Assembly: GCA_016703005.1 (NCBI GenBank)
Contig: JADJCX010000033.1
Coordinates: forward strand, 164,430 to 228,429
DNA length: 64,000 nucleotides
Direction of reading: 5' to 3'
Source: Flavobacteriales bacterium
GTDB lineage: Bacteria; Bacteroidota; Bacteroidia; Flavobacteriales_F; PHOS-HE28
A model generated the notes under the pieces. It was not told where the DNA came from, made no database searches, and saw only the letters and a list, made by a program, of their open reading frames with translations. Of the stretch, positions 2,708 to 62,985 are shown piece by piece. Positions within the stretch are counted from its first letter, which is position 1. Each line of letters opens with the position of its first letter. The position numbers and the translations under genes were made by a program.

Positions 2708-3581
2708 CGCCGAGCCCGAACAGGGCGATATCGTATTTGATCGGATCAGACGGGTCGAGCTTGCGGAGTTGTTCCGTCAGCTCGACCACGCTTTTCCAGT
2801 CGTCCTGTTTGCGGGTGAGCAAGCCCAGCTCCCGCGCCACGCGGCCGGTGTGTACATCGAGCGGAACGTGAAGTGCCGAGGCCGGGATCCGTTTCCACCA
2901 GCCCATATCGATACCGCGATCGTTCGGGCGCACCATCCACCGCAAGTACATGTTGATGCGCTTCGCGTTGCTGCCCTTCGATGGATCGGCCACATGCTTT
3001 TGCGTGCGCGCCTGATGCCTGGGTTCGAAGAAGCGCTGCTTGAAGAGGCTGATGCCCTCGGCCGTTCGCCAAGTGTCAATGGCGGTCGCGCTTGCTCGCG
3101 TGCCAGTAGCTCGCGGCTCGCGGCTAAAGGCTCGAGGCCCTTCCCCCAGAAAGCCCTCTTCGATCCCACCATACTGCTTGTACAAATGCCGCATGCCCAC
3201 GATGAAGTGCTTCAGGTCGATCCCGTTGAAGGTGCGGTGCACGAAACGATCGAGCCTGCGCAGCTCGGCCGATGACGCGTTCATGACAACATCGTGCGGC
3301 GCATCATCGAGCAGGTGCACCAGCTTCCACGCATTGGCAATGATGGTTTTGCGTTGTCCCCAAGCGATGGTCGCGGTGAGAAAGCCGATCACCTCGGCAT
3401 CGCCGCGCTTGCTGAACGAACGTGGCACCTGAACGGGATCCAGTTCGATGAAGGCCGGGTTGGCCAGCCGGTCGTAGGCCTCGTCCAAGAGTGCTTTCAC
3501 ATCCACGGGGCGAAGCTGCGCAAGACACTTCTTGGATGGCACAGCATGATCAGGATTTTCCACAGATGGCGCAGATGACAC
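2697..3581 (-). CDS. TIGR02757 (DUF2400) family protein
   Basis: 294-aa ORF. LDPVQVPRSF...GFLTATIAWGQRKTII...FVHRTFNG matches the conserved DUF2400 core. The 5' end overlaps the tandem repeat, so the start is uncertain. Confidence 0.65.
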   Translation of the reverse strand: MSSAPSVENPDHAVPSKKCLAQLRPVDVKALLDEAYDRLANPAFIELDPVQVPRSFSKRGDAEVIGFLTATIAWGQRKTIIANAWKLVHLLDDAPHDVVMNASSAELRRLDRFVHRTFNGIDLKHFIVGMRHLYKQYGGIEEGFLGEGPRAFSREPRATGTRASATAIDTWRTAEGISLFKQRFFEPRHQARTQKHVADPSKGSNAKRINMYLRWMVRPNDRGIDMGWWKRIPASALHVPLDVHTGRVARELGLLTRKQDDWKSVVELTEQLRKLDPSDPIKYDIALFGLGVTR

Positions 3582-3790
3582 AGATATCGCCTACGGCGAT
3601 CGGCGCGCGTTGCGCCTGCGACAGCAGGCCATCTGTGCTATCTGCGTCATCTGCGGAAGACAATTCTTAGATGGCACGATGGTCAGGATTTTCCACAGAT
3701 GGCGCAGATGACACAGATGGCGCCTTCGGCGAATGGCGCACTCGAAGCCTGCGACAGCAGGCTATCTGTGCCATCTGCGTCATCTGCGGA
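3529..3790. repeat. Tandem duplication (2 x ~136 bp) of an element with 26-bp inverted arms built from 9-bp-spaced CAGATG iterons
   Basis: Unit 1 (~3529-3657) and unit 2 (~3665-3790) are ~85% identical. Each holds ccacagatggcgcagatgacacagat ... atctgtgc(t/c)atctgcgtcatctgcgg (3xCAGATG then 3xCATCTG). It lies in the divergent region between the DUF2400 gene and the 3866 gene. Confidence 0.7.
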
Positions 3791-8765: not shown

Positions 8766-9050
8766 TCACTTCTTCCGGAACGAAAGGCCTGCAGCTTTCA
8801 GCGCGCTTCGCAGCTTGGGCAGGGAACCGGGGCCCATGCCGTGCAACGCCAGTACTTCGCGCTCGCTGCGTCCGGCTAACGTCTTCACGGTGGTGATCCC
8901 TTCGCTCTCCAGCGCCCTGCGCGCGGGTGCACTCAGCTTCGCCATCCAGCCGTCCTTGGGCGCGCCCAGGGTCTCACACACTGGACAAGTCGGGCAATCG
9001 CTGCTCTTGACGTAGCTATGACCGTTGGGACAAGTGCGCCGGTTCTTCAT
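8766..9050 (-). CDS. Small zinc-ribbon + helix-hairpin-helix protein (RNA polymerase alpha CTD-like fold)
   Basis: MKNRRTCPNGHSYVKSSDCPTCPVCE (CxxH...CxxC ribbon) followed by LSAPARRALESEGITTVKTLAGRSEREVLALHGMGPGSLPKL (HhH). Confidence 0.45.
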   Translation of the reverse strand: MKNRRTCPNGHSYVKSSDCPTCPVCETLGAPKDGWMAKLSAPARRALESEGITTVKTLAGRSEREVLALHGMGPGSLPKLRSALKAAGLSFRKK

Positions 9051-9081
9051 TATCTGATCATCTCATTTTCCGATCCTCTGA

Positions 9082-9492
9082 TCAACCTTGCGCCTGCTTC
9101 TGATCCATCCAGAATACCTCCCAGATGTGGCCGTCCAGATCGTTGAAGCTGCGGGCGAACATGAAGCCGTGATCCTCGGCTGGACGGCATTCGGTGGCGC
9201 CACCCGCAAGGGCCTTGTTGTACAACACATCCACCGCTTCGCGACTTTCCACGGAAAAGGCAAGCAGCACTTCGGTGCTCTTGGTCGCGTCCCCAACGGT
9301 CTTGCCCTTCGGCAGGAAACGTTGGATGCTGGACGACGTGTGCAGCATGCAGTAGATGGTATTGCTGATCACCAAACAGGCCGCATCGTCATTGGTGAAC
9401 TGCATGTTGAAACTCCAGCCGAGCTTCTTGAAGAAGGTCATGCTGTTCGCAAGGTCATTGACCTGCATGTTGACGAAGATCTGGGTGGGCAT
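9082..9492 (-). CDS. VOC family protein (glyoxalase/bleomycin-resistance/dioxygenase fold)
   Basis: 136 aa. IFVNMQVNDLANSMTFFKKLGW...ECRPAEDHGFMFARSFNDLDGHIWEVFWMD is typical of small VOC proteins. Confidence 0.7.
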   Translation of the reverse strand: MPTQIFVNMQVNDLANSMTFFKKLGWSFNMQFTNDDAACLVISNTIYCMLHTSSSIQRFLPKGKTVGDATKSTEVLLAFSVESREAVDVLYNKALAGGATECRPAEDHGFMFARSFNDLDGHIWEVFWMDQKQAQG

Positions 9493-9495
9493 CGT

Positions 9496-9960
9496 TCAGG
9501 GTTGTGCGGTTTCGGTGAAGAGGATGAGCCTGCCGAGGCAGTCGTTCCAGCCGACGGCGTGTTCCTCGCAGTGTGCCACGGTGGCGAACGTGGTCTGGTT
9601 CAGGGTGAGCAGGGTGGTGGTGCCGCGTTGCTCGAGGGTGATCTCTACAACGGTATCGCACCAGATGTCGCCTTCGCTGTCCTCGCGCAGCCAGGTGAAG
9701 ACCAGTCGCGATGGCGCGTTGATGTGCGTGTACTCGCCCCGCACCCAGTGGTCGCTGCCGTCGGGTGCGCGCATGCAGAAGCGGTACTTGCCGCCCACGC
9801 GAAAGTCCTGTTCGCAATGGGGTAGCGTGAAGTCGTTCGGTCCCCACCAGCGGACGAGGTGCTTAGGGTTGGTCCATGCGTTGAAAACCAGCTCGCGCGG
9901 AGCATTCAGGATTCGTGATAGCACCAGCGTGCGCTCGTCGGTTGCCGTCAGGGAGTTCAT
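9496..9960 (-). CDS. SRPBCC domain protein (Aha1-like)
   Basis: LVLSRILNAPRELVFNAWTNPKHLVRWWGPNDFT...TTTLLTLNQTTFAT. Confidence 0.75.
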   Translation of the reverse strand: MNSLTATDERTLVLSRILNAPRELVFNAWTNPKHLVRWWGPNDFTLPHCEQDFRVGGKYRFCMRAPDGSDHWVRGEYTHINAPSRLVFTWLREDSEGDIWCDTVVEITLEQRGTTTLLTLNQTTFATVAHCEEHAVGWNDCLGRLILFTETAQP

Positions 9961-9963
9961 GGT

Positions 9964-10245
9964 CTACCGATGAAAGGTCAATGTGTTCAGTCCTTTTGCG
10001 CTGCGTGCTTCCATTAAGGCCAAGCCACCAACGAAGAGCACTTCCGCCAATAGATGCGCAACGCCCAGTGCGCTGAGTTCACTTGCTTTGTTGAAGAGCA
10101 AGCCAAGACAGAAGAGGGCATACAGCGCATTCGCGGTGATGAGCGTCCACACGGGATTGGGACGATAGGCTTTGAGCAGCGTGATCGTACCGGAGAATGC
10201 GCCGTAGCACATCCCGACGATGCCCAGCCGAGCGAACCACGCCAC
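9964..10245 (-). CDS. Small multi-TM membrane protein (possibly the 3' part of a frameshifted longer gene reaching 10355)
   Basis: 93-aa ORF with GTG start and hydrophobic helices. The overlapping ORF 10014-10355 in another frame has a TM-like N-terminus, suggesting one gene with an indel near 10250. Confidence 0.35.
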   Translation of the reverse strand: MAWFARLGIVGMCYGAFSGTITLLKAYRPNPVWTLITANALYALFCLGLLFNKASELSALGVAHLLAEVLFVGGLALMEARSAKGLNTLTFHR

Positions 10246-10351: not shown

Positions 10352-11107
10352 TCATGCGCGTTTTGCTTTGGTCTTTGTCCTGACAGCGGCTGCCGTGCGC
10401 TTCGTATCCCGCTTCTCCGCGCGCTTCGCGATCATCGGTCGGTTGATGTCGCTTAACACATCTTTTCCTACCCAGCGTTCGGTCTTGTCGGTGCTGGCGG
10501 CGAGGCGCTCAGCGACTTCCAGGGCGGCTTCGCGACAGACCACGCTTCGCGAACCCAAACTGCGCAAGGCCCAGCTCACGGCCTTCTTCACGAAGTTGCG
10601 CTCGTCGTTCGCGGCCTTCTCGCATAGGGGCAACAATTCGAGGTAGGGCTCATCGGGTCCTTTCTTGTCGTGCAAGGCGCAACCGGCCAACAACGCGAAC
10701 GCTGCCCGCTTTTCGAACTCCGGCTTACGCTTGGCCCACTGCTTCACCTTGCTGAACGCATGCGGGGTCTTGTCGAAGAGCAGGAAGCACGCCGTGTCGC
10801 AATCAGCCCAATTCTGGAAGTCAGCGCACCAGGCATCCATCATGGAGGGCGTCACCAGCCTGGGGTCAGCAAGGTGTGTGGCCAGCGCTTTGGCTTCATG
10901 CCAACCGGTGTCCCAGAGCAACAGCGCCAATTCGTGGTCCTTGCCGATGGTCTTGGCCAGCTTCTGCACGTCCGGCATCGAAGTACCGAATGCCTGATCC
11001 GTGTGGATCGCGAAGCGCGCTGACAATTGTTCACGGTAGCGCTTCGTGCCATGCGACTCCAACAACTTGAGTGCCGCCTTTACATCCGCTTCTCGCTTCC
11101 CGGCCAT
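10352..11107 (-). CDS. DNA alkylation repair enzyme (AlkD-like HEAT-repeat DNA glycosylase family)
   Basis: 251 aa. LKLLESHGTKRYREQLSARFAIHTDQAFGTSMPDVQKLAKTIGKDHELALLLWDTGWHEAKALATHLADP...DAWCADFQNWADCDTAC matches the PF08713 pattern. Lys-rich C-tail. Confidence 0.65.
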   Translation of the reverse strand: MAGKREADVKAALKLLESHGTKRYREQLSARFAIHTDQAFGTSMPDVQKLAKTIGKDHELALLLWDTGWHEAKALATHLADPRLVTPSMMDAWCADFQNWADCDTACFLLFDKTPHAFSKVKQWAKRKPEFEKRAAFALLAGCALHDKKGPDEPYLELLPLCEKAANDERNFVKKAVSWALRSLGSRSVVCREAALEVAERLAASTDKTERWVGKDVLSDINRPMIAKRAEKRDTKRTAAAVRTKTKAKRA

Positions 11108-11136
11108 TCGGTCATCTCATTGTCTGATCAACTGAT

Positions 11137-11604
11137 CTACGCCACGATCCAGTTCAACTCCGTCCGATACTCGCTCGGACTCTTAACCTCATTCGGGTTG
11201 TTCAGGTAGCTCTCCCAGAATTTCCCCGTTTCGCCGTGGCCGTTCTCGCGCACCCATTTCTGCAAGGCTGGCCATGCTTGCGCCAGTCCTTCGTATGGAC
11301 CTTGGTACACACTCCGCACGACTTTCGCCGCAGGCAGCGTGCTATTGATGACACGTCCCTGAGGCTTGATCGCCTTCGCTACTGGGAATCCGATCTCGAA
11401 GTCAAAGGTGTCTGCCGGTCGGCGATGGTGATAGGAGAACATCGGTCCGCCGTACGGCGGATGCATGCCTTGCTCGGCGAGCACCTGGATGATCTCTTGG
11501 ATCGCAGGGTCCATGTACTTCGGCATGTCGCGGCCGGGGATCACGAGCGGGATGGCAGCCGTGATGACTTCTTGAGTGGTGATGACTTCGGGTGGAGTGA
11601 TCAT
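11137..11604 (-). CDS. GyrI-like small-molecule-binding domain protein
   Basis: 155 aa. MPKYMDPAIQEI...PMFSYHHRRPADTFDFEIGFPV...VRSVYQGPYEGL...SYLNNPNEVKSPSEYRTEL is the GyrI/AraC effector-domain pattern. Confidence 0.6.
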   Translation of the reverse strand: MITPPEVITTQEVITAAIPLVIPGRDMPKYMDPAIQEIIQVLAEQGMHPPYGGPMFSYHHRRPADTFDFEIGFPVAKAIKPQGRVINSTLPAAKVVRSVYQGPYEGLAQAWPALQKWVRENGHGETGKFWESYLNNPNEVKSPSEYRTELNWIVA

Positions 11605-25298: not shown

Positions 25299-25336
25299 GA
25301 AAGCGAAAGCCCCGAATTGTCGGGGCTTTCGCTTTG
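25299..25336. terminator. Bidirectional hairpin terminator
   Basis: aagcgaaagccccga-attg-tcggggctttcgctt is a perfect 15-bp stem between convergent genes. Confidence 0.6.
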
Positions 25337-38168: not shown

Positions 38169-39047
38169 TCAGTAGTCTCCTAACGTTTCGGGAAGCTGTC
38201 CAAGTGCTTTGGCCAGCTGTTCGTCGTTAGGGGCAATACCGTGCCACTCGTGGCTGCCCACCATGAAGTCCACGCCCTGGCCCATTTCCGTGCGCATGAT
38301 GATCATCACGGGTTTGCCTTTGCCGGTGCGGCCCTTCGCATCGGCCAAGCCACGCAGCACATCGGTCATGTCGTTGCCGTTCATGTGCAATACATCCCAA
38401 CCGAACGCGCGCCACTTGGCGTCGAGGTCGCCCAAAGGCAACACCTTGTCCGTGTCGCCGTCGATCTGCCTTCCGTTGCTGTCAATGGTACTGATCAGGT
38501 TGTCCACCTTCTTGGCTGCGGCGAACATCGCCGCTTCCCAGATCTGCCCTTCCTGCAATTCGCCGTCGCCGTGCAGGGTGTACACCAGCTGCTTGTCGCC
38601 ATTCAGCTTCTTCGCCAAAGCAGCACCGATGCCCACGCTCAGCCCTTGGCCCAAGGAGCCGCTGGCCATACGCACACCGGGCAAGCCTTCGTGCGTGGTA
38701 GGGTGGCCTTGCAAGCGCGTGTTGAGTTTGCGGAAAGTTGCGAGTTCAGCCACCGGGAAGTAGCCGCTGCGCGCCAGCACGCTGTAGAACACCGGACTGA
38801 TATGCCCGTTGCTGAGGAAGAATATGTCCTGCCCACGTCCATCCATGTCAAAAACCTGCGCGTCATGCTTCAACACATTGAAGTAGAGCGCGGTGAAGAA
38901 CTCCGTGCAACCCAACGAGCCGCCCGGGTGACCGCTCTGCACCGCATGCACCATGCGCACGATGTCGCGGCGCACCTGGCTGCAGATCTTCTCCAATTGA
39001 GGGATGTCCGCTACGGATGCCGCACGGGTCATGGGTTCTTCGAGCAT
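38169..39047 (-). CDS. Transketolase, N-terminal (thiamine diphosphate-binding) subunit
   Basis: HAVQSGHPGGSLGCTEFFTALY...GHPTT...GSLGQGLSVGIGAALA...HGDGELQEGQIWEA. Confidence 0.8.
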   Translation of the reverse strand: MLEEPMTRAASVADIPQLEKICSQVRRDIVRMVHAVQSGHPGGSLGCTEFFTALYFNVLKHDAQVFDMDGRGQDIFFLSNGHISPVFYSVLARSGYFPVAELATFRKLNTRLQGHPTTHEGLPGVRMASGSLGQGLSVGIGAALAKKLNGDKQLVYTLHGDGELQEGQIWEAAMFAAAKKVDNLISTIDSNGRQIDGDTDKVLPLGDLDAKWRAFGWDVLHMNGNDMTDVLRGLADAKGRTGKGKPVMIIMRTEMGQGVDFMVGSHEWHGIAPNDEQLAKALGQLPETLGDY

Positions 39048-39206
39048 GTATGGGTGGGAAGGCCGCCGAAAGTACCCGGCCCCCCTGCGCGCCTCCGGTG
39101 ATCGTTGAAAAAGAACCGGGCGTGTGGATAATTCCCCGAGGAAATGCGGGCCTCAGACCACGGGCTTCTGGCTTCAGGCATTTCAGTGCACGCCTTTGGT
39201 CATATG

Positions 39207-39395
39207 CACGTTGCCCTTAGCCATTGGCCTCCCTCCGCATTGTCATCCCGAGAAGTCTGCGACGAGGATCTCTCTTCACACGGATGATCCTGTTCCCGAG
39301 AGATCCTTCCTCCTCGATGACTCGTCGTCTGGATGACAGAGCCTGCTCCCCGCTTACTACTCACTACTCACGACTCCCAACTCACGACTCCTACT
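39207..39395. repeat. Copy B of the structured intergenic repeat family
   Basis: cgttgccc...cctccgcattgtcatcccgagaagtctgcgacgagg...cccgagagatccttcctcctcgatgactcgtcgtctggatgacagagcctgctccccgct...cactactcacgactcc. The tail overlaps the stop codon of the 39391-39780 gene. Confidence 0.6.
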
Positions 39396-39780
39396 CCCCG
39401 CTATACAACTGCTTCACGTCCTCCTTGCTCAGTTCGATGAGCGTGAACACGCCGAGGGCGGTGCCGAGGGGGAAGCTGAGGCAATCGATACCGGCCACCA
39501 CCATGCTGAAGACGCGGCCCTTGCGCTTGCCGATGTTGCGCGCGCTGATGATGTTCAGCACGGCGAAGAACAGTACGAACAACGCGATCGCCCAGCCCAT
39601 TGCGCCCATTACGCTGCCGACAACGGCCGGTGCCGCTTCGCCGCTCTGCTGTGCAACGAAGTCGCTTTGCAGAAAGCCGCCCATTGTGTTGAAAACGATG
39701 AAGATCACCAGTGCTCCGAGGGCTTCGAACGCACCATAGACATAGTGCAGGATCTCCAATGTGCGTAGGTTGTTTTTCAT
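39391..39780 (-). CDS. Small multi-TM membrane protein (hypothetical)
   Basis: 129 aa with three hydrophobic helices, flanked on both sides by repeat copies B and C. Confidence 0.5.
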   Translation of the reverse strand: MKNNLRTLEILHYVYGAFEALGALVIFIVFNTMGGFLQSDFVAQQSGEAAPAVVGSVMGAMGWAIALFVLFFAVLNIISARNIGKRKGRVFSMVVAGIDCLSFPLGTALGVFTLIELSKEDVKQLYSGE

Positions 39781-39922
39781 GATGGGGGTTGGTTCTTGGG
39801 TGTGAAATTGATCGCCGCAACAACGCGTTCAGCGCGGGCTACATGAACGGCTGCGGGTGACGAGCAGCGGAACGCAGAGGGCTTCGAGCCATGAGCCATG
39901 AGCCGCGAACTTCTCGGCGCAC

Positions 39923-40050
39923 AGCGTTGCCCCCCTCCGCATTGTCATCCCGGTCCCGTTCCCGAGAGTTCCTTCCTCCTCGATGACTCGTCGTCCGGAT
40001 GACAGAGCTGCTCCCCGCTCACGACTCACTACTCACGACTCCTTTCATTC
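39923..40050. repeat. Copy C (shorter variant) of the structured intergenic repeat family
   Basis: cgttgcccccctccgcattgtcatcccg[deletion]ttcccgagagttccttcctcctcgatgactcgtcgtccggatgacagagctgctccccgctcacgactcactactcacgactcc. Confidence 0.6.
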
Positions 40051-40101
40051 CGCTCTGGCACAGCCCTTGCCAACCCCCGGCCGCGGACAAAACCGCAACG
40101 C

Positions 40102-40713
40102 ATGAAAAAGCTATTCCTGTCCTTCGCTGTTGTAGCACTGGCCGGTACGGCCAACGCCCAGGTCCAATTCAACCCACAAGTGGGCCTCAACTACCAAACG
40201 CTCACCAACCCGCCCGCTGGCGCCACCTACGGTGCGCGCGCCGGATTCCTGCTCGGTACCGACTTCCGCTTCGGCAACCGGGCCTATTTCCAACCCGGTG
40301 TGTTCATCGGTCGCAACAACACGTTCTTCAGCTACAACGACAGCACGTTGGCGCAAGGCAACATCGTACGCACCAACTTGAAAATGAAGGCCCTCGTCGG
40401 CTACCGCATCATCGATACCTACCAGTTCGATATGCGCTTCGGTATCGGCCCCACATACGATGTGCTGCTGAGCACCGACGTGAAGAACAGTGAGAACATC
40501 GCATGGAACGGCGGCGACTTCAACAAGGGCAGCTGGAACATCGACGCGGCCCTCGGCTTCGACATGGGCCACTTCACGCTGGAGCCCGGCGTAAGCTTCG
40601 GCCTCAGTCGTGCCTTCAACGACAACCTCAATGTGCAGGACATCGACAGCCGGTACATCAGCTACGGCCTCACCATCGGCTTCAACTTCGGCGACGACGA
40701 CAAGAACGATTGA
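40102..40713 (+). CDS. Outer-membrane beta-barrel protein (OmpW/porin-like)
   Basis: Signal peptide MKKLFLSFAVVALAGTANAQ. Alternating beta strands. C-terminal ISYGLTIGFNF. Confidence 0.65.
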   Translation: MKKLFLSFAVVALAGTANAQVQFNPQVGLNYQTLTNPPAGATYGARAGFLLGTDFRFGNRAYFQPGVFIGRNNTFFSYNDSTLAQGNIVRTNLKMKALVGYRIIDTYQFDMRFGIGPTYDVLLSTDVKNSENIAWNGGDFNKGSWNIDAALGFDMGHFTLEPGVSFGLSRAFNDNLNVQDIDSRYISYGLTIGFNFGDDDKND

Positions 40714-44665: not shown

Positions 44666-44757
44666 GAACTACGTACCACTACAAAGCAGAAGCCCCTCTT
44701 TCGAGGGGCTTCGCTATTTCCGTGCAGTGTCTCTACCAAAGCACGGGAATGGGTTGA

Positions 44758-45860: not shown

Positions 45861-46655
45861 TCATACGATCTCGGCCTGTTGCGCCCCGATCATCGCGTTC
45901 AGCTCCTTCACCGCATTCACGAGCATGTAGGTCATGGCGCTGTTGTCCACTTCCAGGTATTCCGTGCCATCGATCACCAGTGTGTCGATCATGTAAGGTG
46001 CCACCTCGCGGAGTTGTTGCGCGATCACGCCCACGTACTCAATGGTCGTATCGGTCTTGGCCAGGCTGTTGTACCGGAAGTGCACGGGCTCAATGGCCAG
46101 TACGGCGCCCAGGCCATCGCCGTACGGCCGCACATCGCGCTTCAAGCGTTGATCGGAGAACACGGCCCATGAGCCGCCGCCGGTCTTGTTCGCCGAGCCG
46201 TTCACGCTAAGCAGGGCCGTGGGCCCCAGGGTACCGATGCCCACGTTGCCGCTGGCCGTTAGGGTCATCACAGATAAGGTGTTGGTGATGAAGGTCAGGT
46301 CATGCGCGCTCCTCGTACCGAACCATGCTGAAGCATTGCCAGGGAAATAGGAACCCAAGATGATATTGCCATCCGTATGGCTAAATCCACCGCCGACGCC
46401 TGGTGTACGTACAGTGAGTTTATCGGTGGATGTTGTTGTGCCGATCCCCACGTTGCCGTTGGTCAACAAGGTGATCTGGGGGCTGCTATTGTTGGTGAAG
46501 AAGCTCAGGCTGTGGTTGCTCTTCGTGCCCAACCATCCTCCACTGGTGCTCCCCCACATAGGACCCCACGGTGATCGTACCATCGGTATGGGTGAACCCG
46601 AAGTTGCTGGTGGCCGTTCGCACGGTGAGCTTATCGGTGGGTGCGTTCGTACCAA
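45861..46655 (-). CDS. C-terminal fragment of the giant protein with tail-fibre intramolecular-chaperone (peptidase S74-like) domain
   Basis: GGSWAVFSDQRLKRDVRPYGDGLGAVLAIEPVHFRYN...EYVGVIAQQLREVAPYMI resembles the auto-cleaving C-terminal chaperone of phage tail fibres/endosialidases. Confidence 0.55.
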   Translation of the reverse strand: MVRTHPPISSPCERPPATSGSPIPMVRSPWGPMWGSTSGGWLGTKSNHSLSFFTNNSSPQITLLTNGNVGIGTTTSTDKLTVRTPGVGGGFSHTDGNIILGSYFPGNASAWFGTRSAHDLTFITNTLSVMTLTASGNVGIGTLGPTALLSVNGSANKTGGGSWAVFSDQRLKRDVRPYGDGLGAVLAIEPVHFRYNSLAKTDTTIEYVGVIAQQLREVAPYMIDTLVIDGTEYLEVDNSAMTYMLVNAVKELNAMIGAQQAEIV

Positions 46656-48054
46656 TACCCACGTTGCCTTCGACGATCGCTCCGTTCGTGGGTGCGGCTG
46701 TTGTACCGGAGAAGTTGGCGCCTACGGCCATGCCGCCTTCCACATCCAATTTGCTGGCAGGCGTGGTGGTGCCGATGCCCACGTTCGTTCCATCGTCGGT
46801 CATCACGCCATCGGTGAGTGTGGTGCCGTTCCACTTGGGCACCTGGTTCGTTGTGGCGCTGCTCACCTGCGGGTCCGTTTCAGCCGCCACGTTCTGCCAA
46901 GTGGCCGCACCGTTCGCATCCGAAGTGAGTACGCGGCCAGCGGCTTGTGTGCCATCGGCGATGCGCACGTTGCCCGCTACATGCAACTTGGCTGCGGGCG
47001 CGGTGGTGCCGATGCCGACGTTGCCTTCGATGATGGCTCCGTTCGCCGGTGCGGCTGTTGTACCGGAGTAGGTGGCGCCTACGGCCATGCCTCCTTCCAC
47101 ATCCAATTTGCTGGCGGGCGTGGTGGTGCCGATGCCCACGTTGCCCGTCGCATCTTCCACCATGGCGGCATCACCGAGAATGGTTCCCGTATTGCCGAAT
47201 TTGGCCAGGTGGTTCAAGGTGCCGTTGGCGTTCACCGCCGGGCCTACGGCACCTTGTGGGCCGACGGGGCCTTGCGGACCAACGGCCTTGCCGGCATTGA
47301 TCACGCTGGCATCGCTCAGCGTTACGTAGAGCGAATCGTTGGTGATCGCTGCGGTCGTTACCGATACCCCTTGCGGGCCGGTGGGGCCCGTGGATCCCGT
47401 GGGACCTTGCACACCCGTTGGGCCTTGGTCGCCTACCTCGCCAGCGATGCTCGCCGCCCATGAGCTGTATGTGCCGGAACCCATGGTCCTGTCCACCAGC
47501 ACCGTGATGTTAGCCACTCCGCCGCTGGTGATGTTCCCTTCCATCCATAGAGCCGTAGTGGGGTAAACGCTGATGCGTACACGGGAACCTATGTTATAGG
47601 CGGTGTTCCGGTCCAACGCGAACGACTTTGAACCGGTGCCGATGGTCTGCGAGGTGAAGGAAAAGGCGTAGTAGCCAGGACCCGATGCTCCAGTTGCTCC
47701 ATTGGACCCGTTCATACCGGTTATGGCGATGGTCCATGGGCTATACGTACCTGAGCCGAGCGCTCCTTGTAGCGATACTGACATGGATGTCCCGCTGGGG
47801 GTGTATGCAGTGACAGTACCGAACATGTAGTGTGTCGTGGGGTTGCCGGTCCTGCTGATCCTTACGTTATCGCCCACTTGATAAGCCAGGCCCGTTTGCG
47901 TGGCGAACGTGATAGTGCCACTTGGGGCAATGGTCATTGCCGTTGTGGACGTTGCGTAGTACCCCGGCCCAGTGGCTCCTTGCGGTCCTGTTGCTCCTGT
48001 TGCACCCGTTGCTCCTGTTGCGCCTACCGCTCCTTGCGGCCCTGTAGCGCCCAC
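46486..48054 (-). CDS. Central/C-proximal fragment of the giant protein (collagen-like Gly-X-Y tracts and beta-helix repeats)
   Basis: GATGATGATGATGPQGATGP, GPTGVQGPTGSTGPTGPQG, GPQGPVGPQGAVGP. GNVGIGTTTPASKLDVEGGMAVGA appears twice. Confidence 0.6.
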   Translation of the reverse strand: MGATGPQGAVGATGATGATGATGPQGATGPGYYATSTTAMTIAPSGTITFATQTGLAYQVGDNVRISRTGNPTTHYMFGTVTAYTPSGTSMSVSLQGALGSGTYSPWTIAITGMNGSNGATGASGPGYYAFSFTSQTIGTGSKSFALDRNTAYNIGSRVRISVYPTTALWMEGNITSGGVANITVLVDRTMGSGTYSSWAASIAGEVGDQGPTGVQGPTGSTGPTGPQGVSVTTAAITNDSLYVTLSDASVINAGKAVGPQGPVGPQGAVGPAVNANGTLNHLAKFGNTGTILGDAAMVEDATGNVGIGTTTPASKLDVEGGMAVGATYSGTTAAPANGAIIEGNVGIGTTAPAAKLHVAGNVRIADGTQAAGRVLTSDANGAATWQNVAAETDPQVSSATTNQVPKWNGTTLTDGVMTDDGTNVGIGTTTPASKLDVEGGMAVGANFSGTTAAPTNGAIVEGNVGIGTNAPTDKLTVRTATSNFGFTHTDGTITVGSYVGEHQWRMVGHEEQPQPELLHQQ

Positions 48055-49942
48055 CGGCCCTTGCGGCCCCGTGGCACCAGTAGCTCCTTGCGCACCAACA
48101 GCACCCGCGAGCGGCTGCGAGGTGATACCACCGTCACCGGATCCATCGTGATCATGTTCGGGCAGAAGAGCTTATACACTTGCATGGTGTAGCCGGACTG
48201 GTTCACCACGTAGGCGTAGTTGTCAGCCACGGTCACGGCAAATGATCCTGTACCGGTGGCGATGGTTGCACTGAGACTGGGTGCGGCCGGGTTGCTGATG
48301 TTCCACGCTGTCAGGGTGTTGTTGGCGTTCACCACAAAAGCGTAATTGCTCGCTATGGTCATCGCAAAAGCACCACTACCTAGGCGATGTTGGCAATGAG
48401 GCTGGGCGCAGCCGGGTTCACGTTGAACACCAACATGTTACCAGCCGTATTCGCCAGGCATAGGTGCCCGATACGGCGACGGTATAGGCGCTGGAGACCG
48501 TTGAGATAAGTGGCGCTGAGGCTGGGTGCTGCCGGGTTGCTGACGTTGAACACCATCATGTTGGTGCTGTTGAAGTGTACCACATAAACATAGTTGCCCC
48601 CTGCGGCCACGTCCCGGGGTGGGTACCGGTGGCTATGGTGCTGCTATGAGGCTGGGCGTTACCGGGTTGCTGATATCGAAAACCATGAGGTTGTTACTCG
48701 CGGAGTTCACCAAGTACATGTAGTTGCCCATCACGGCCGCGGAACGAGGGCTCGTACCGGTTGCGACGGTGGCAACCAGGCTGGGTGCAGCCGGGTTGCT
48801 GATGTTGAACACCGACATATTGCTACTTCCGAAGTTCAACACATAAGCGTAATTGCCCGCCACGGTCAAAGCACGCGGACTGGTTCCGGTGGCGATGGTG
48901 GCGCTGAGGCTGGGCGCGGCCGGGTTGCTGATGTTGAACACCATCATGTTGTTGCTGAAGGCGTTCACCACGTAAGCGTAGCTACCGGCCACGGCCCACG
49001 TCAGTGGGGTCTGGAGTCGATACCGGTGGTGATGGTGGCCGTGGTGCTCAAGCAGGCGAGGTTACCTCCTGGCACGTTCCCGCTCCCGAAAATGCTCTCC
49101 GCGCTCAGGTTCTGCCAGCTGGCATTTCCGTTGGCATCGCTGGTGAGGATGTTGCCGCCCTGTGACCGTCGGCCAGTAGTGTTGTGCCAGCCATGCAACT
49201 TGGCCGCTGGGGTGGTGGGTGCCAATGCCACATTGGCTTCGATGGCTCCACTCGCCGGTGCGGCTGTTTGTGCCGGAGTAGGTGGCGCCGCCGCCCTCCT
49301 TCCACATCAATCTGCTGGCGGGCGTGGTGGTGCCGATCCCCACGTTGCCACCGTTCGTGTTTGCGATGTGTTCGCCGTAGTTGACCCATGGTGCGGTCTG
49401 CGAGGTGATCGTACCTGTACTCGCATCCATGGTGATCATGTTCGGGCAGTAGAGATCATACACCGTCATGTTGTTGCTGTTGATGTTCACCACGTAGGCG
49501 GTGCCGCCCTCCACCGCTACGAATTGCGGGCCGGTGCCGGTGGCGATGGTGGCCCTGAGGGTGGGTGCTTCCGGGTTGCTGATGTCGAACAGCAACATGT
49601 TGTTGCTGGTGCCATAAGCGTGGTTTCCTGCCCGGCCACGGATTCGGAGCCTGTCAGCCGCGATCGTGGCCACCAGGGCCGGAGCGGACGGAGTGCTGAT
49701 GTCGAACACATGCAAGTTGTGGGACCCGGAACTCACCACGTAGGCGTGGCTGCCAGCAATGGCCACGGATTGGGGTGTGGGTCCCGTAACGACGATGGCG
49801 ATCAATGTGGGCGCGGCCGGGTTGCTGATGTTGAACACCTGCATCGTGTTGCTGCCCCGGTTCACGGCGTAGAGGTAACTACCAGCCACCTGGAGCGAGG
49901 TCGGTTCTGGCCCGGTATAGGTGGTGGAGACCAGGCTGGGCG

Positions 49943-51088
49943 CTAAAGGGGCAATGATGTCGTACGTGAGGATGCGCTCCGGCGAGTTGTGAGCGACACG
50001 TACAGGAAGTTCCCGGATATGGCCACCGACCGAGGGTACAACCCTATGTTAACGCTGCCTTCAAGTACCGGCGCCGATGGAACGCTGATATCATAGATGC
50101 GCATCGAACTGCCGCCGGATGTGATGACGTAGGCGTAGCCACCGCCGATGGCCATGGAGATCGGCAGCATGTCGATGCCGCTTACGGTGCTTGCAAGAAC
50201 AGGTGCAGCCGGCGTGCTGATATTGAACACGTTCATGGATCCGTCATCCTGGTTCAGGACATAGGCATGATCTCCGTTGATCGTCACGAAACGGGGTTTC
50301 AACCCTGTTCCTATAGCGGCCGTTTGACTCGCACAGCCTAAGGTGCCCCCCGGCACGTTCCCGCTGCCGAAAACGCTCTCCGCGCTCAGGTTCTGCCAAC
50401 TCGCGTTGCCGTTCGCATCGCTGGTGAGCACCTTGGCTGCGCCTTGTGAGCCGTCCTGGTATTTGATGCCGCCCACCACATGCAATGTGGTGTCCGGCGC
50501 GCTGGTGCCGATGCCCACGCGCCTGCCATTGTTGTGCAGGGTATCGCCGCTCAACACCCAACCGGGCGTACCGGCCAGGCTGGAGAGGTCCACGCCGTTG
50601 CCGCCGGTGATGTAGAGCGTGTCGTTGCTCAGCGTGAGCGTTTGCGGTACGCTGGTGGTATTGCTATCGCTGGTGAGGGCGTGCATGGCGAAGGGCACTG
50701 CCTTGAAGGGCCCGCCGCTGAGGAAGGTGTAGTTGGTGCCGCCGGTCACATCCACCGCCACGCTGTAGGTGATGGGTTGTCCGCTGGCCCACTGCACATC
50801 AGCGAACGTGGGAATGGCCGAGCCGCCCACCGGCGTGCCCTGCCCGATGGTGAGGGCGATGAGCCCGTAGGCGTCGGTGCTGGCGCCGTGCGTCTCCACG
50901 TAGGTGTCCGAGGGGCCCACCTGAATGGTCACTTGCACGCCCACGGGCTGGCTGGGCACGGGGTCGCCAACGTTGTCGCGTACCACGGCCTGGTAGCTGA
51001 AGCCACTGAAGTTCTGCGCGATGCCTTGCACCCCGATGAGGAGGGTGAAGGCGAGCAGCAACGAACGGAACGAATGCGTAGAGAGCAT
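49943..51088 (-). CDS. N-terminal fragment of the giant protein (signal peptide, beta-helix, first LVIVD-like repeats)
   Basis: MLSTHSFRSLLLAFTLLIGVQGIAQ. VLTSDANGNASWQNLSAESVFGSGNVPGG. YAYVLNQDDGSMNVFNISTPAAPVL and YAYVITSGGSSMRIYDISVPSAPVL are LVIVD-like. Confidence 0.6.
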   Translation of the reverse strand: MLSTHSFRSLLLAFTLLIGVQGIAQNFSGFSYQAVVRDNVGDPVPSQPVGVQVTIQVGPSDTYVETHGASTDAYGLIALTIGQGTPVGGSAIPTFADVQWASGQPITYSVAVDVTGGTNYTFLSGGPFKAVPFAMHALTSDSNTTSVPQTLTLSNDTLYITGGNGVDLSSLAGTPGWVLSGDTLHNNGRRVGIGTSAPDTTLHVVGGIKYQDGSQGAAKVLTSDANGNASWQNLSAESVFGSGNVPGGTLGCASQTAAIGTGLKPRFVTINGDHAYVLNQDDGSMNVFNISTPAAPVLASTVSGIDMLPISMAIGGGYAYVITSGGSSMRIYDISVPSAPVLEGSVNIGLYPRSVAISGNFLYVSLTTRRSASSRTTSLPL

Positions 51089-55106: not shown

Positions 55107-55238
55107 CGGTCCGAATGTTCCACAGCAGGCGTACTGGTTCGAGGGCAAGACCAGGACTACGAGGAGAACCGCAAGAAGCGTTTAGGTGGGGATCTCGTGC
55201 CGCACCGGATGAAGTACCGGAAGCTGGTGCGGGGTTGA
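55107..55238 (+). pseudogene. Relic duplicate of the ettA 3' end (gene fragment)
   Basis: ~130 bp that is ~85% identical to 44536-44665. Encodes ...YWFEGK/QDYEENRKKRLGGDLVPHRMKYRKLVRG* with an internal 1-nt deletion. Confidence 0.45.
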
Positions 55239-55273
55239 TCAGAAGATCAGACAATAGGACGATCAGAAAACGA

Positions 55274-55300
55274 GAAGCCCCGACACGTCGGGGCTTCTGC
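55274..55300. terminator. Bidirectional hairpin terminator
   Basis: gaagccccgac-ac-gtcggggcttc is a perfect 11-bp stem between convergent genes. Confidence 0.55.
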
Positions 55301-55317
55301 TTACAGGATCCTTATCG

Positions 55318-58639: not shown

Positions 58640-60031
58640 CTATTCCTTCACCACCATCCGGGTGGTCGACCCATGAGACGTGCGCAACGTAACGTGGTAC
58701 AGCCCGGCCGGTTGCGCGGATAGATCCGCAGTGCATGTCGCGCCGGTGACCGTGGAGCGGAGCACCGCTTGCCCCAGCGCATTGCGCACGAGAATGCTCT
58801 CCGGTTGCTGCGCCCGATCGAGCTGGATCGTGACGGCGCCGTTCGTCGGGTTCGGGTGGATCATCAACACCATGTCTGTTTCCACCGCGTTGATGCTTTG
58901 GGCCGGTGCGCACGCCGCCACCACCTGCACCGGTACATCGGTGTTCACGTTCGTTCCATCGCCCAATGTGCCCGATGCGTTGTTGCCCCACGTCCACAGC
59001 GCGCCGCTATTGAGCAACGCCATGCTATGGAAGTCGCCGCCGGCAATGGTGTGTACATCCGACAGACCGGCTACCTGCACCGGCAGCAATTGGTCGGTGC
59101 TGCCGCCAATGCCCAACTGCCCTTGGGCGTTGCGACCCCACACGTGCAGGGTGCCGTCGCTCTTGATGGCCAACGAATGGTACTGGCCACCGGCAATGGC
59201 CGCCACATCGGTGAGCCCGCTCACTTGCACCGGCACGTTGCTGTACACGATGGTGCCGTCGCCCAACTGGCCGAACTGGTTGTAACCCCAGGTCCACACG
59301 GTGCCATCGTTCTTCAGCGCCATGCAGTGGTAGCGACCGCTGGCAATGGCGGACACACCGCTGAGACCGTTCACCTGCACCGGTGTATTCGCATCGTTGT
59401 TCGTGCCATTGCCCACTTGTCCATACGTGTTGTTGCCCCAACCCCAAACGGTGCCATCGGTACGCAGGGCCACCGAGTGATCGAAGCCCGCACTCACGGC
59501 GTACACACCGGTCAGGTTGGCCACCTGCACCGGAACGCTGCTATCGGTGTTCGTGCCATTACCCAACTGGCCCTCGGTATTGCTGCCCATTGTCCACACG
59601 GTGCCATCGCTCTTGGCGGCTACTGTGTGGTAGTTGCCGCGCGCCGCATCGATCACAGCGCTCAGGGCCGTGATCTGTACGGGCGCATTGCGATCGATCG
59701 TGGTCCCGTCGCCCACCTGGCCGTAGGGGTTCGAACCCCACGCCCAGAGCTCGCCACTGGTGGTGATGGCCAAGGAATGCGCGCCGCAACCGTGGGGCAG
59801 CGCAAAAACGCCGGTGAGCCCGACCACCGCTACCGGTGCATTGAAGGAGATGAAGTTGCCCGTGCCCAGTTCGCCGCTGCCGTTGTTGCCCCAGGATTGA
59901 ACGTTACTGTTCGCGCAGATCAACAGCGAATGGCCACCACCACCGGCAATGACCTGGGCATTGGTGGTGCAAGCGAGTGACGGGATGATCGTTGCGAAGA
60001 GCAACGAAAGGAGTTGGGGAGCGTTGCTCAT
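58640..60031 (-). CDS. RCC1-repeat beta-propeller protein with T9SS C-terminal sorting domain
   Basis: Signal MSNAPQLLSLLFATIIPSLACTTNAQ. At least 6 RCC1 repeats (WGNNGSGELGTGN / WGSNPYGQVGDGT ...). C-terminal MIHPNPTNGAVTIQ...GLYHVTLRTSHGSTTRMVVKE. Confidence 0.65.
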   Translation of the reverse strand: MSNAPQLLSLLFATIIPSLACTTNAQVIAGGGGHSLLICANSNVQSWGNNGSGELGTGNFISFNAPVAVVGLTGVFALPHGCGAHSLAITTSGELWAWGSNPYGQVGDGTTIDRNAPVQITALSAVIDAARGNYHTVAAKSDGTVWTMGSNTEGQLGNGTNTDSSVPVQVANLTGVYAVSAGFDHSVALRTDGTVWGWGNNTYGQVGNGTNNDANTPVQVNGLSGVSAIASGRYHCMALKNDGTVWTWGYNQFGQLGDGTIVYSNVPVQVSGLTDVAAIAGGQYHSLAIKSDGTLHVWGRNAQGQLGIGGSTDQLLPVQVAGLSDVHTIAGGDFHSMALLNSGALWTWGNNASGTLGDGTNVNTDVPVQVVAACAPAQSINAVETDMVLMIHPNPTNGAVTIQLDRAQQPESILVRNALGQAVLRSTVTGATCTADLSAQPAGLYHVTLRTSHGSTTRMVVKE

Positions 60032-61563: not shown

Positions 61564-62985
61564 ATGTCGAGCGCCTCTTTGCACCACGCCTTCACCAACA
61601 CCTTGCACGTGCCCGTGATCGTTGCGGTGTTATTGCTGCACACTGTGGCCGCAGGCCAATGCTGGGACCACGTGTCGATCGGTATGCGGCACAGTGTCGG
61701 CGTGCAAGTGGATGGCACCTTGTGGACCTGGGGTTGGAACGATGTAGGGCAACTGGGCAACGGCACCAACACGCCGGTGAACATTCCGCAGCAAGTGGGC
61801 TTCGATAGCGATTGGGTGTTGGCGGTTGCGGCCGGCAGTTTCGACGTGGTGTTGAACACAAACGGCAAGCATACCGCCGCCATCAAGGCCAACGGAACGC
61901 TCTGGACCTGGGGCGGCAACGATCATGGGCAACTGGGCGATGGCACCTTGGTGGACCGCAACAGTCCCGCGCAAGTGGGCACCGATACATGGGTGGCCGT
62001 GCAATGCGGTGCGTTGCACACGGTGGCCTTGCGCTCGGATAGCACACTATGGGCCTGGGGCTATAACACCTACGGGCAGTTGGGTCTGGGCAATTTGGTG
62101 GAAGGGCATACGCCCACGCAGGTGGGTACCGACACCGATTGGTGGCAGATTGTTTCAACGGACATGCACTGCCTGGCCCTGAAAAGCGACAGCAGCTTGT
62201 GGAGCTGGGGTCTGAACAATTATTACCAGTTGGGCTTCTTCAACGACAACCAGAACAAAGTGGTGCCTACGCACGTGGGCTCGGCCACCAACTGGCGCAG
62301 CATCGCCACGGGCCGCTACTTCTCATTTGCGGTCAAGGGGAACAATACACTTTGGGGCTGGGGCAGCAACGACAGCGGGCAACTGGGTTTGGGCGTGGTG
62401 GCGGGCTACCACCCGGTGCCGCAGCAGATCGGCACGGGCACTATGTGGGAGGCAGTAGCTTGTGGCGATGCGCACACCCTTGCACAACGCACCGACGGAA
62501 GTCTGTGGGGCTGGGGCTTCAATTACTTCGGTCAGCTGGGCCTGAACAACAACACGTGGAACTACCTGAGCCCGCAAAGCCTGCCCAACGGTGTGGGTAG
62601 CTCGGCGGTAAGCGCCGGCTACTACAGCAGCGGCAGCCTGCGCGCCGATAGCAGTTTGTGGACCTGGGGCGGCAACGATCATGGTAACCTGGGTGTAGGC
62701 GACATGTTGCAGCGCGAGGTGCCCACAGCTGTTGTCTGCACCTTCACCACGGCCGTACCCGAGGGATCGCTGCCCATGCTCAAGGCTTACCCAATGCCCA
62801 CCGAAGCGCTATTGTTCTTGAACCGTACGGTGGATGCCCTATGGCTGTACGACCTGCATGGCCGCTCGCTCTTGACCCTGCAATCCACCGACCGCCTCGA
62901 CTTGACGGGCGTACAAGCCGGCACCTACCTACTGCATGCACGCGTGAACGGACAGGTGGTCCATGTGCGCGTGATGAAACGCTGA
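61564..62985 (+). CDS. RCC1-repeat beta-propeller protein with T9SS C-terminal sorting domain
   Basis: At least 7 RCC1 repeats (WTWGWNDVGQLGNGT, WTWGGNDHGQLGDGT, WAWGYNTYGQLGLG ...). C-terminal LKAYPMPTEALLFLNRTV...GTYLLHARVNGQVVHVRVMKR. Confidence 0.65.
   Translation: MSSASLHHAFTNTLHVPVIVAVLLLHTVAAGQCWDHVSIGMRHSVGVQVDGTLWTWGWNDVGQLGNGTNTPVNIPQQVGFDSDWVLAVAAGSFDVVLNTNGKHTAAIKANGTLWTWGGNDHGQLGDGTLVDRNSPAQVGTDTWVAVQCGALHTVALRSDSTLWAWGYNTYGQLGLGNLVEGHTPTQVGTDTDWWQIVSTDMHCLALKSDSSLWSWGLNNYYQLGFFNDNQNKVVPTHVGSATNWRSIATGRYFSFAVKGNNTLWGWGSNDSGQLGLGVVAGYHPVPQQIGTGTMWEAVACGDAHTLAQRTDGSLWGWGFNYFGQLGLNNNTWNYLSPQSLPNGVGSSAVSAGYYSSGSLRADSSLWTWGGNDHGNLGVGDMLQREVPTAVVCTFTTAVPEGSLPMLKAYPMPTEALLFLNRTVDALWLYDLHGRSLLTLQSTDRLDLTGVQAGTYLLHARVNGQVVHVRVMKR

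Follow-up and report, generated by a model that had tools for sequence, protein, structure and literature searches.

TGTC-headed repeat dimers in an uncultured activated-sludge Flavobacteriales species: probable relatives of the repeats recognised by Ssn nucleases

The repeats and the question they raise

A 64,000-nucleotide stretch of contig JADJCX010000033.1 (assembly GCA_016703005.1, positions 164,430 to 228,429), here called the window, carries three copies of a hairpin-forming repeat, two of which enclose a small membrane-protein gene. The initial annotation, made from the letters alone, took them for a novel MITE- or REP-like family that may end transcripts, stabilise RNA or promote recombination. 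The locus thus raises the question of what kind of element these repeats are and which enzyme, if any, recognises them.

Architecture of the three copies

Copies A (1–175), B (39207–39395) and C (39923–40050), all read on the + strand, are present and homologous as first described: their three-way alignment has a mean column identity of 66% and contains long invariant blocks. They are intergenic and able to form hairpins, again as proposed. A lies 39 kb from B and C, which are in direct orientation, 700 nt apart, with one gene between them. In each full copy two inverted modules are joined as a dimer, their TGTCATCC heads facing outwards, and a CTCACKA tail that varies between strains comes after them; the complete order is leader, 5' module, variable spacer of ∼22 nt, 3' module and tail. 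The family pattern of the 5' module is TGTCATCC-CGAG-N10-CGAG-GGATCTC, that of the 3' module, read on the opposite strand, is TGTCATCC-(A/T)GA-CGA-...-GAG-GAAGGATCTC, and the tail consists of GAGC(C)TGCTC and then heptamers. In every module an oriented TGTC head directly precedes an AT...AT segment, with C directly after it (TGTC-ATCC...GGAT-C-TC). Though related, the two modules are not identical, and their mutual pairing gives a long hairpin; as the two heads point outwards on opposite strands, the dimer can also fold as one such structure. The head is invariant on both arms in all 10 aligned copies.

Copy A is a full dimer upstream of a gene (266–2707, + strand) for an 813-aa T9SS-sorted FG-GAP protein, of which a database look-up returned no exact record. 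Its 5' module (14–46, + strand) reads TGTCATCC-CGAG-N10-CGAG-GAATCTC with the head on the + strand, its 3' module (71–107) reads TGTCATCCTGACGAGGCTCTGAGAGGAAGGATCTCTC on the − strand, and its tail (141–168, + strand) comprises GCCTGCTC and 2.4 copies of an ACTCACG heptamer. The insertion attributed to this copy is real, amounting to an extra ∼25–30 nt between the 3' head and the tail. A 5' arm opening with a leader, cgttgccc...cctccgcat, had been ascribed to all three copies; the leader is found in B and C, and in A it is cut off by the window start, the missing flank being supplied by an orthologous metagenome locus (L068).

Copy B is a complete dimer that has both leader and tail; the 3' end of the membrane-protein gene lies on one side of it, and on the other a gene for the N-terminal subunit of transketolase (38169–39047, − strand) starts. 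The 5' module (39241–39274, + strand; TGTCATCCCGAGAAGTCTGCGACGAGGATCTCTC) is separated by a spacer (39275–39297), which forms the loop of the long hairpin and varies among family members, from a 3' module (39298–39338) that reads TGTCATCCAGACGACGAGTCATCGAGGAGGAAGGATCTCTC on the − strand and belongs to the type found directly upstream of ssn-like genes. The tail (39339–39395, + strand) starts with GAGCCTGCTCCCCGCT and continues as a degenerate CTCACKA array that covers, as had been noticed, the stop codon (39391–39393), together with the last codons, of the gene at 39391–39780 (− strand). This gene, flanked by B and C, encodes a small membrane protein of 129 aa with no Pfam match.

Copy C lies where the membrane-protein gene and a gene for an OMP_b-brl_2 barrel protein (40102–40713, + strand) diverge, in the DNA between them. 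Its internal deletion, previously put at ∼45 bp, removes ∼39 alignment columns of the inner 5' arm, so that the 5' module is reduced to its head, TGTCATCC, at 39943–39950 (+ strand). The 3' module (39964–40004, − strand) differs from that of B at two positions and is followed by a tail of CTCACGA heptamers (40005–40041, + strand). Just 5' of the copy stand 2.7 copies of a different heptamer, GAGCCAT (39886–39904, + strand).

Two diagnostic motifs of the copies are over-represented relative to dinucleotide shuffles: ATTGTCATCCCGAG has 3 matches with at most 2 mismatches (0.48 expected) and CCCGAGAGATCCTTCCT has 4 with at most 3 mismatches (0.14 expected), three of these four being copies A, B and C. 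The head TGTCATCC occurs six times in the window, each time inside a copy and always as one of an outward-facing pair on opposite strands (14–21 + and 100–107 − in A; 39241–39248 + and 39331–39338 − in B; 39943–39950 + and 39997–40004 − in C). The count of this 8-mer is marginal when taken by itself, given a shuffle mean of 2.68 and 4 of 100 shuffles that reach 6. The short direct repeats of the tail are also borne out: within the window CTCACKA heptamers lie beside A, B and C only, and they are absent from all other fetched loci.

Variation between strains

Public wastewater assemblies include 18 contigs that encode the 129-aa membrane protein in identical form. Two of these come from metagenome-assembled genomes (MAGs), GCA_016706435.1 and GCA_016718415.1, and each matches the window with 98% identity along 16.9 kb. 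Copy C is present in every strain compared, its tail being longer by two heptamer units (+14 nt) in three of them (L032, L034 and L035). Copy B is more variable. On one contig (L033, positions 1409–1677, the allele of 39207–39395) 25 nt, GATCAGTGATGACAAAGCCTCAGAA, replace the ∼115-nt hairpin core; the B tail and identical flanks are kept, and the 25 nt retain a head-like GATGACA. Polymorphism of the kind that the initial annotation suggested looking for is seen as presence or absence of the B core, by gain or loss, and as variable tail length. Comparison of the B-present and B-absent alleles discloses no target-site duplication.

Distribution beyond the locus

Searches with nhmmer and copy B as query found members of the same family in L018, L058, L068 (the orthologue of A), L135 and L097. 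A scan of a genome collection likewise identified a near-identical copy in another Bacteroidetes MAG (L018), along with related two-module palindromes in Patescibacteria, Acidobacteriota, Gemmatimonadota, Planctomycetota and Proteobacteria. In metagenomes the 3' module pattern matched at least 120 stretches of DNA, and most of the matches listed have TCCTTCCTC-(short hairpin)-TCGTCAGGATGACAG in common. As to density, the window holds 3 dimers in 64 kb, and 3 dimers and 1 solo module fall within 20 kb in L158/L159, a locus of a conspecific genome described below; all are intergenic.

That B and C share leader and tail and flank a single gene in direct orientation, at a distance of only 700 nt, would suit a purely local segmental duplication with no family behind it, the circumstance under which the initial annotation would have given up its proposal. 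A is 39 kb away, and the further copies predicted at the outset are found on another contig of the conspecific MAG, on other Bacteroidota contigs and in metagenomes, which refutes this explanation.

A separate observation concerns peat and soil metagenome loci (L041, L044, L052, L060, L083 and others), which contain a longer conserved element, AACCGGTACCGGCTTCGC-N4-GCGAAGCTGTCCGAGATCCTTCCTC-hairpin-TCGTCAGGATGACAG, after which one or two more ...TCGTCAGGATGACA units often come. The element is very abundant and matches no Rfam family.

A GIY-YIG gene wrapped by the repeats

On one contig (L058) three copies of the repeat are packed within 1.5 kb around a small GIY-YIG ORF. Among loci fetched by DNA motif alone, 0.96 Mb in total, tblastn and an iterated HMM revealed GIY-YIG ORFs or fragments in 5, each within ∼100 nt of a module, and nowhere else in the 0.96 Mb. 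In these loci a TGTCATCC...GGATCTC module lies on the coding strand 15–90 nt upstream of the start codon, and the stop codon is followed by a ...GGATGACA module or by a whole dimer. Two of the loci, L039 and L097, have truncated GIY-YIG fragments between modules.

The protein from L058 is identical to P0001, a 115-aa product with PF01541 as its only domain, which NCBI names 'GIY-YIG nuclease family protein' of a Flavobacteriales bacterium. Its gene is located on contig JADKDH010000025.1 (L159) of GCA_016718415.1, the very MAG that also holds a B/C locus (L029) 98% identical to the window over 16.9 kb. An Ssn homologue in a conspecific genome is thus wrapped by the repeat family of the window, the link to the same organism being made through MAG binning; the 64-kb window itself contains no ssn gene. 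Around the 115-aa gene the order is dimer (9805–9906), solo module (9933–9970), gene, dimer (10368–10463) and dimer (10489–10584), which places repeats on both sides.

Assignment to the Ssn group is based on direct comparison with Neisseria. P0001 matches an ORF of N. gonorrhoeae with a tblastn E value of 1e-11 in PLSDB (7.3 Gb), and the pairwise alignment shows 39% identity (E 7e-21). This gonococcal ORF, an orthologue of SsnA, encodes 94 aa and has 7 canonical NTS repeats within 1.6 kb. The threshold for SsnA homology used in the original description is a tblastn E below 1e-10 (PMC11893778), and P0001 therefore counts as an SsnA homologue. The nearest chain in the PDB is the UPF0213 protein 1ZG2 (E 0.0017), and NCBIfam yields no match for P0001. 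A homology search with a second protein, that of L106, returned only close relatives from Acidobacteria.

The association also holds in the reciprocal direction. GIY-YIG homologues chosen by protein alone, from the conspecific L158/L159, Draconibacterium, Bernardetia, a Chitinophagales MAG and an Anaerolineaceae genome, all have TGTCAT-headed modules beside the gene. These modules stand on both sides, clear only downstream in the Chitinophagales locus, and their stems differ by lineage (ATCC/GGAT, ATTC/GAAT or ATTTC/GAAAT). The gene–repeat association observed in the conspecific genome accordingly extends across phyla, Bacteroidota and Chloroflexota, and stands next to the dimeric architecture and the strain polymorphism as a direct observation.

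Two observations on database records arise from these loci. The Anaerolineaceae protein P0102 (L167/L170) is called as a 132-aa product that starts inside a repeat module (ATGTTGCGAAGGATCTTAGCA...), and the extended N terminus probably reflects a gene call misled by the repeats. NZ_CP119140.1 (L171), a 2.17-Mb N. gonorrhoeae record, is labelled a plasmid in PLSDB and is evidently a chromosome.

Folding of the modules

Copy B folds strongly whichever strand is taken, at −46 and −50 kcal/mol (z −3.5 and −3.6), and A and C do so less convincingly (z −1.2 to −2.0). Single window modules folded as single-stranded DNA give z +0.9 to +1.4 against shuffles, as compared with −3.3 and −3.9 for the Neisseria NTS. 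Across the wider set of repeats, the inner segment of the 3' module can form a stem of at least 2 bp in 60% of 65 distinct metagenome variants, among the matches listed, against 8% of shuffles; in the same variants, again among the matches listed, 27 have C-G and 23 have G-C as the outer pair of this stem. DNA is known to form sheared G.A pairs and mini-hairpins of the GCGAAGC type. These folds and the covariation in the superfamily are the grounds for proposing that a module might fold on itself into a G.A-containing hairpin, a possibility that standard DNA energy parameters do not support.

Within the family of the window the picture is different, as 0 of 23 pairs show compensatory base changes, the kind of evidence by which the initial annotation had wished to judge an RNA structure. 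A hammerhead-like reading of CTGACGAG...GAGGAAGG was considered and rejected by eye, the GAAA core being missing; Rfam agrees.

Comparison with known repeat systems

The first description of the Ssn system, published in 2025, concerns Neisseria (Chenal et al., Nat Commun, PMC11893778). Its repeat, the NTS, is an oriented subset of dRS3 (CGTCATTCCCGCGMAVGCGGGAATCYRG), and NTS and related SRM repeats flank ssnA, the product of which is a single-domain GIY-YIG protein of 94 aa (PMC11893778). SsnA binds one strand of the repeat, only when the DNA is single-stranded, and cleaves it a few nucleotides upstream; the bases that matter most are the three (GTC) before the palindrome and the C after it (PMC11893778). 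The family is assigned to cd10448 (GIY-YIG_unchar_3) in CDD (PMC11893778). The system modulates natural transformation in Neisseria, and 71% of SsnA homologues are flanked by SRMs (PMC11893778). In Neisseria and Wolbachia these flanking repeats are the cleavage targets of the enzyme itself, each homologue favouring its own repeat (PMC11893778).

The window family shares with NTS and SRM repeats the oriented (C/T)GTC head before AT...AT and then C, with GTC and C both in place in the full copies. The two groups are also alike in being intergenic and in flanking a small single-domain GIY-YIG gene on both sides; both occur in several copies, for the window family in the stretches of 64 kb and 20 kb considered here. 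B and C enclose a gene for a membrane protein, an arrangement also known from NTS clusters in Neisseria. Other traits set the Flavobacteriales repeats apart. Instead of a clean 8-bp palindrome their modules have 4–5 Watson–Crick pairs, CGAG...CGAG, possibly a tandem G.A arrangement, and a 4–10 nt loop; the units are dimers of two unlike modules, with heptamer microsatellites at the flanks. Nuclease activity has been assayed in Neisseria, and the Flavobacteriales form is known here from its sequence. The published SRM motif, HGTCWYN(0-2)YYVSBRHN(0-5)WNVSBRGN(0-2)RNCYNB (PMC11893778), has 0 matches in the window, L158, L159, L162, L165–L167, L006, L106, L018, L135 and L068, and as a positive control finds 7 sites in the gonococcal ssnA locus. 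The head and trailing C are those of the NTS, but the SRM motif misses the repeats and hairpins of single modules are not predicted, and the family is therefore best described as a divergent member, not a canonical SRM.

A second body of work concerns CGTC-tagged REPs (Di Nocera et al., BMC Genomics 2013, PMC3733652), which are mostly head-to-head dimers, occur in five phyla including Bacteroidetes, and comprise Neisseria dRS3 and Rickettsia RPE-4/6. Their tag is often TGTC and their stems begin with AT; they 'apparently lack a dedicated transposase' and are reported not to flank RAYT genes (PMC3733652). The TGTC tag and AT stem start are present in every module of the window family, and all its full copies are inverted dimers. 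Differences lie in the stem: the CGTC REPs have 8–9 bp stems, 4–5 nt loops and a CCA-like tail, whereas the window modules have ATCC(C)/(G)GGAT with 4–5 Watson–Crick pairs, a non-complementary CGAG...CGAG, a loop of 4–10 nt and a CTC tail. As inverted hairpin dimers with the CGTC/TGTC signature, the copies are rightly called REP-like. They are not novel in kind, since the modules carry that signature and flank an Ssn homologue as NTS and SRM repeats do. The wrapping of this homologue by the same family, together with the TGTCAT modules at other homologues, places the repeats with the CGTC/TGTC REPs and the NTS/SRM-Ssn pairs.

Cyanobacterial STRR sequences are intergenic heptanucleotide tandem repeats with a copy number that varies between strains. 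The heptamers of the window differ in occurring only as flanks of a hairpin subfamily.

Interpretation and rival explanations

The most probable reading, with a probability of about 0.7, is that A, B and C are the form taken in Flavobacteriales, here in an uncultured activated-sludge species, by the CGTC/TGTC repeats recognised by Ssn proteins, cleavage being extrapolated from Neisseria. According to the mechanism this suggests, an Ssn homologue would bind the TGTCAT... strand of a module whenever the DNA becomes single-stranded, as in replication, repair or incoming transforming or conjugative DNA, and would nick it a few nucleotides outside the head, which for a dimer means just outside either end. 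Nicking could then influence the recombination or uptake of inter-repeat DNA, such as the membrane-protein gene between B and C, and would probably also drive the turnover and spread of the repeats. The copies in the window would be gene-less relatives of the repeat-ssn-repeat unit.

Other origins have to be weighed against this reading. The causal direction may be reversed, the small GIY-YIG gene being a selfish cassette that settles in pre-existing REP dimers, in which case the window copies would not be nuclease substrates and would have spread by other means. The gene sits exactly at the spacer position of a dimer or beside complete dimers, truncated GIY-YIG fragments remain between modules in L039 and L097, and single modules make poor hairpins, all of which would fit such a cassette. 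Still, the flanking repeats of Neisseria and Wolbachia are the targets of their own enzymes, each with a preference for its own repeat (PMC11893778), and the window family shows no variation at the head and tail bases that are critical for SsnA, so that the cassette appears unlikely, though it deserves to be taken more seriously than the explanations below. A transposase provides another conceivable motor: the copies could be REPINs moved by a Y1 transposase of the RAYT type, or else MITEs of the classic kind that depend on a DDE insertion sequence, and their inverted-repeat ends agree with such an origin. REPIN-RAYT systems (Bertels and Rainey 2011, PMC3116915) resemble the window family in having two inverted units that make one long hairpin, apparently numerous copies without a gene, and one nuclease gene that goes with the repeats and has them on its flanks. 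They differ in the nature of the nuclease and of the head, an HUH Y1 transposase with a GTAG-type head as opposed to GIY-YIG with TGTC. The gene that is wrapped is of the PF01541 family and neither Y1 nor DDE, and CGTC-type REPs are reported not to flank RAYT genes (PMC3733652). Because no target-site duplication is seen at the polymorphic B site and no transposase partner is seen, a MITE in the transposase sense, one of the labels first given to the copies, is not supported, and mobilisation by such an enzyme is highly improbable.

The proposal that the copies serve mainly as cis-acting RNA elements, whether terminators, stabilisers of mRNA 3' ends or small RNAs, fares only slightly better and is quite improbable. 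In its favour B follows a stop codon and folds to −46/−50 kcal/mol with z near −3.5, and REPs in other systems can stabilise mRNA 3' ends. Yet nothing resembling an intrinsic terminator is present in the region 39000–40200, the hairpin is not followed by a T-run, the genes on either side of C diverge and A is upstream of a gene, and both strands fold equally well. Rfam gives no match at gathering score across the window, nothing relevant at E up to 10 in 39100–40150, and on 20 related loci no match apart from an unrelated L10 leader. With the 0 of 23 compensatory pairs, these results tell against the terminator or RNA-stability role offered by the initial annotation; SsnA, moreover, does not bind RNA in Neisseria (PMC11893778).

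If the repeats are Ssn targets, an apparently orphan repeat can now be filed under a mechanism worked out only in 2025; no new kind of system is revealed. The published SRM motif misses the Bacteroidota and Chloroflexota forms, and surveys based on that motif therefore underestimate the spread of Ssn-repeat pairs. A broader generalisation is more tentative, falling somewhat short of an even chance: Ssn homologues of Bacteroidota and Chloroflexota, and probably many from soil and peat, may use divergent, interrupted, G.A-containing and usually dimeric repeats undetectable by the SRM motif. Were this so, Ssn-repeat systems would be much commoner than reported, considering that at least 120 stretches matched the 3' module pattern alone, and new specificities of single-stranded DNA nucleases would be on offer. 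Under this generalisation, repeated nicking and repair at the sites might also have left behind the heptamer arrays, variable between strains, at the ends of the dimers. In biotechnology, any further Ssn-repeat pair is a candidate for a nuclease that cuts single-stranded DNA at specific sites. For annotation, the repeats explain recurrent spurious small ORFs and assembly breaks in the intergenic DNA of wastewater Flavobacteriales.

Other repeats in the window

Several further repeats are present in the window. Two tandem intergenic copies, 87% alike and with a unit of ∼133 nt, occupy 3516–3790, each unit being a long palindrome of 9-mers, CAGATGGCG / CAGATGACA; judging by the inverted GCGTCATCTGCGG / CGCAGATGAC ends, this may be a second hairpin repeat headed by CGTC. 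A TCTGATC-rich intergenic motif of ∼60 nt, for example TCTGATCATCTCATTGTCTGATCNTCTGATCAACC, is found in three copies, at 9030–9125, 11095–11160 and, on the reverse strand, 55195–55290. Mutually similar GC-rich hairpins, GAAGCCCC...GGGGCTTC, at 25301–25328, 44684–44720 and 55266–55302 look like shared stem-loops of the terminator type. Internal repeats within coding sequence are located at 46200–50500, 58950–59900 and 61700–62700; one, with a period of ∼129 nt, belongs to large − strand genes, and the two with periods of 150–153 nt encode WGxNxxGQLG, an RCC1-like motif.
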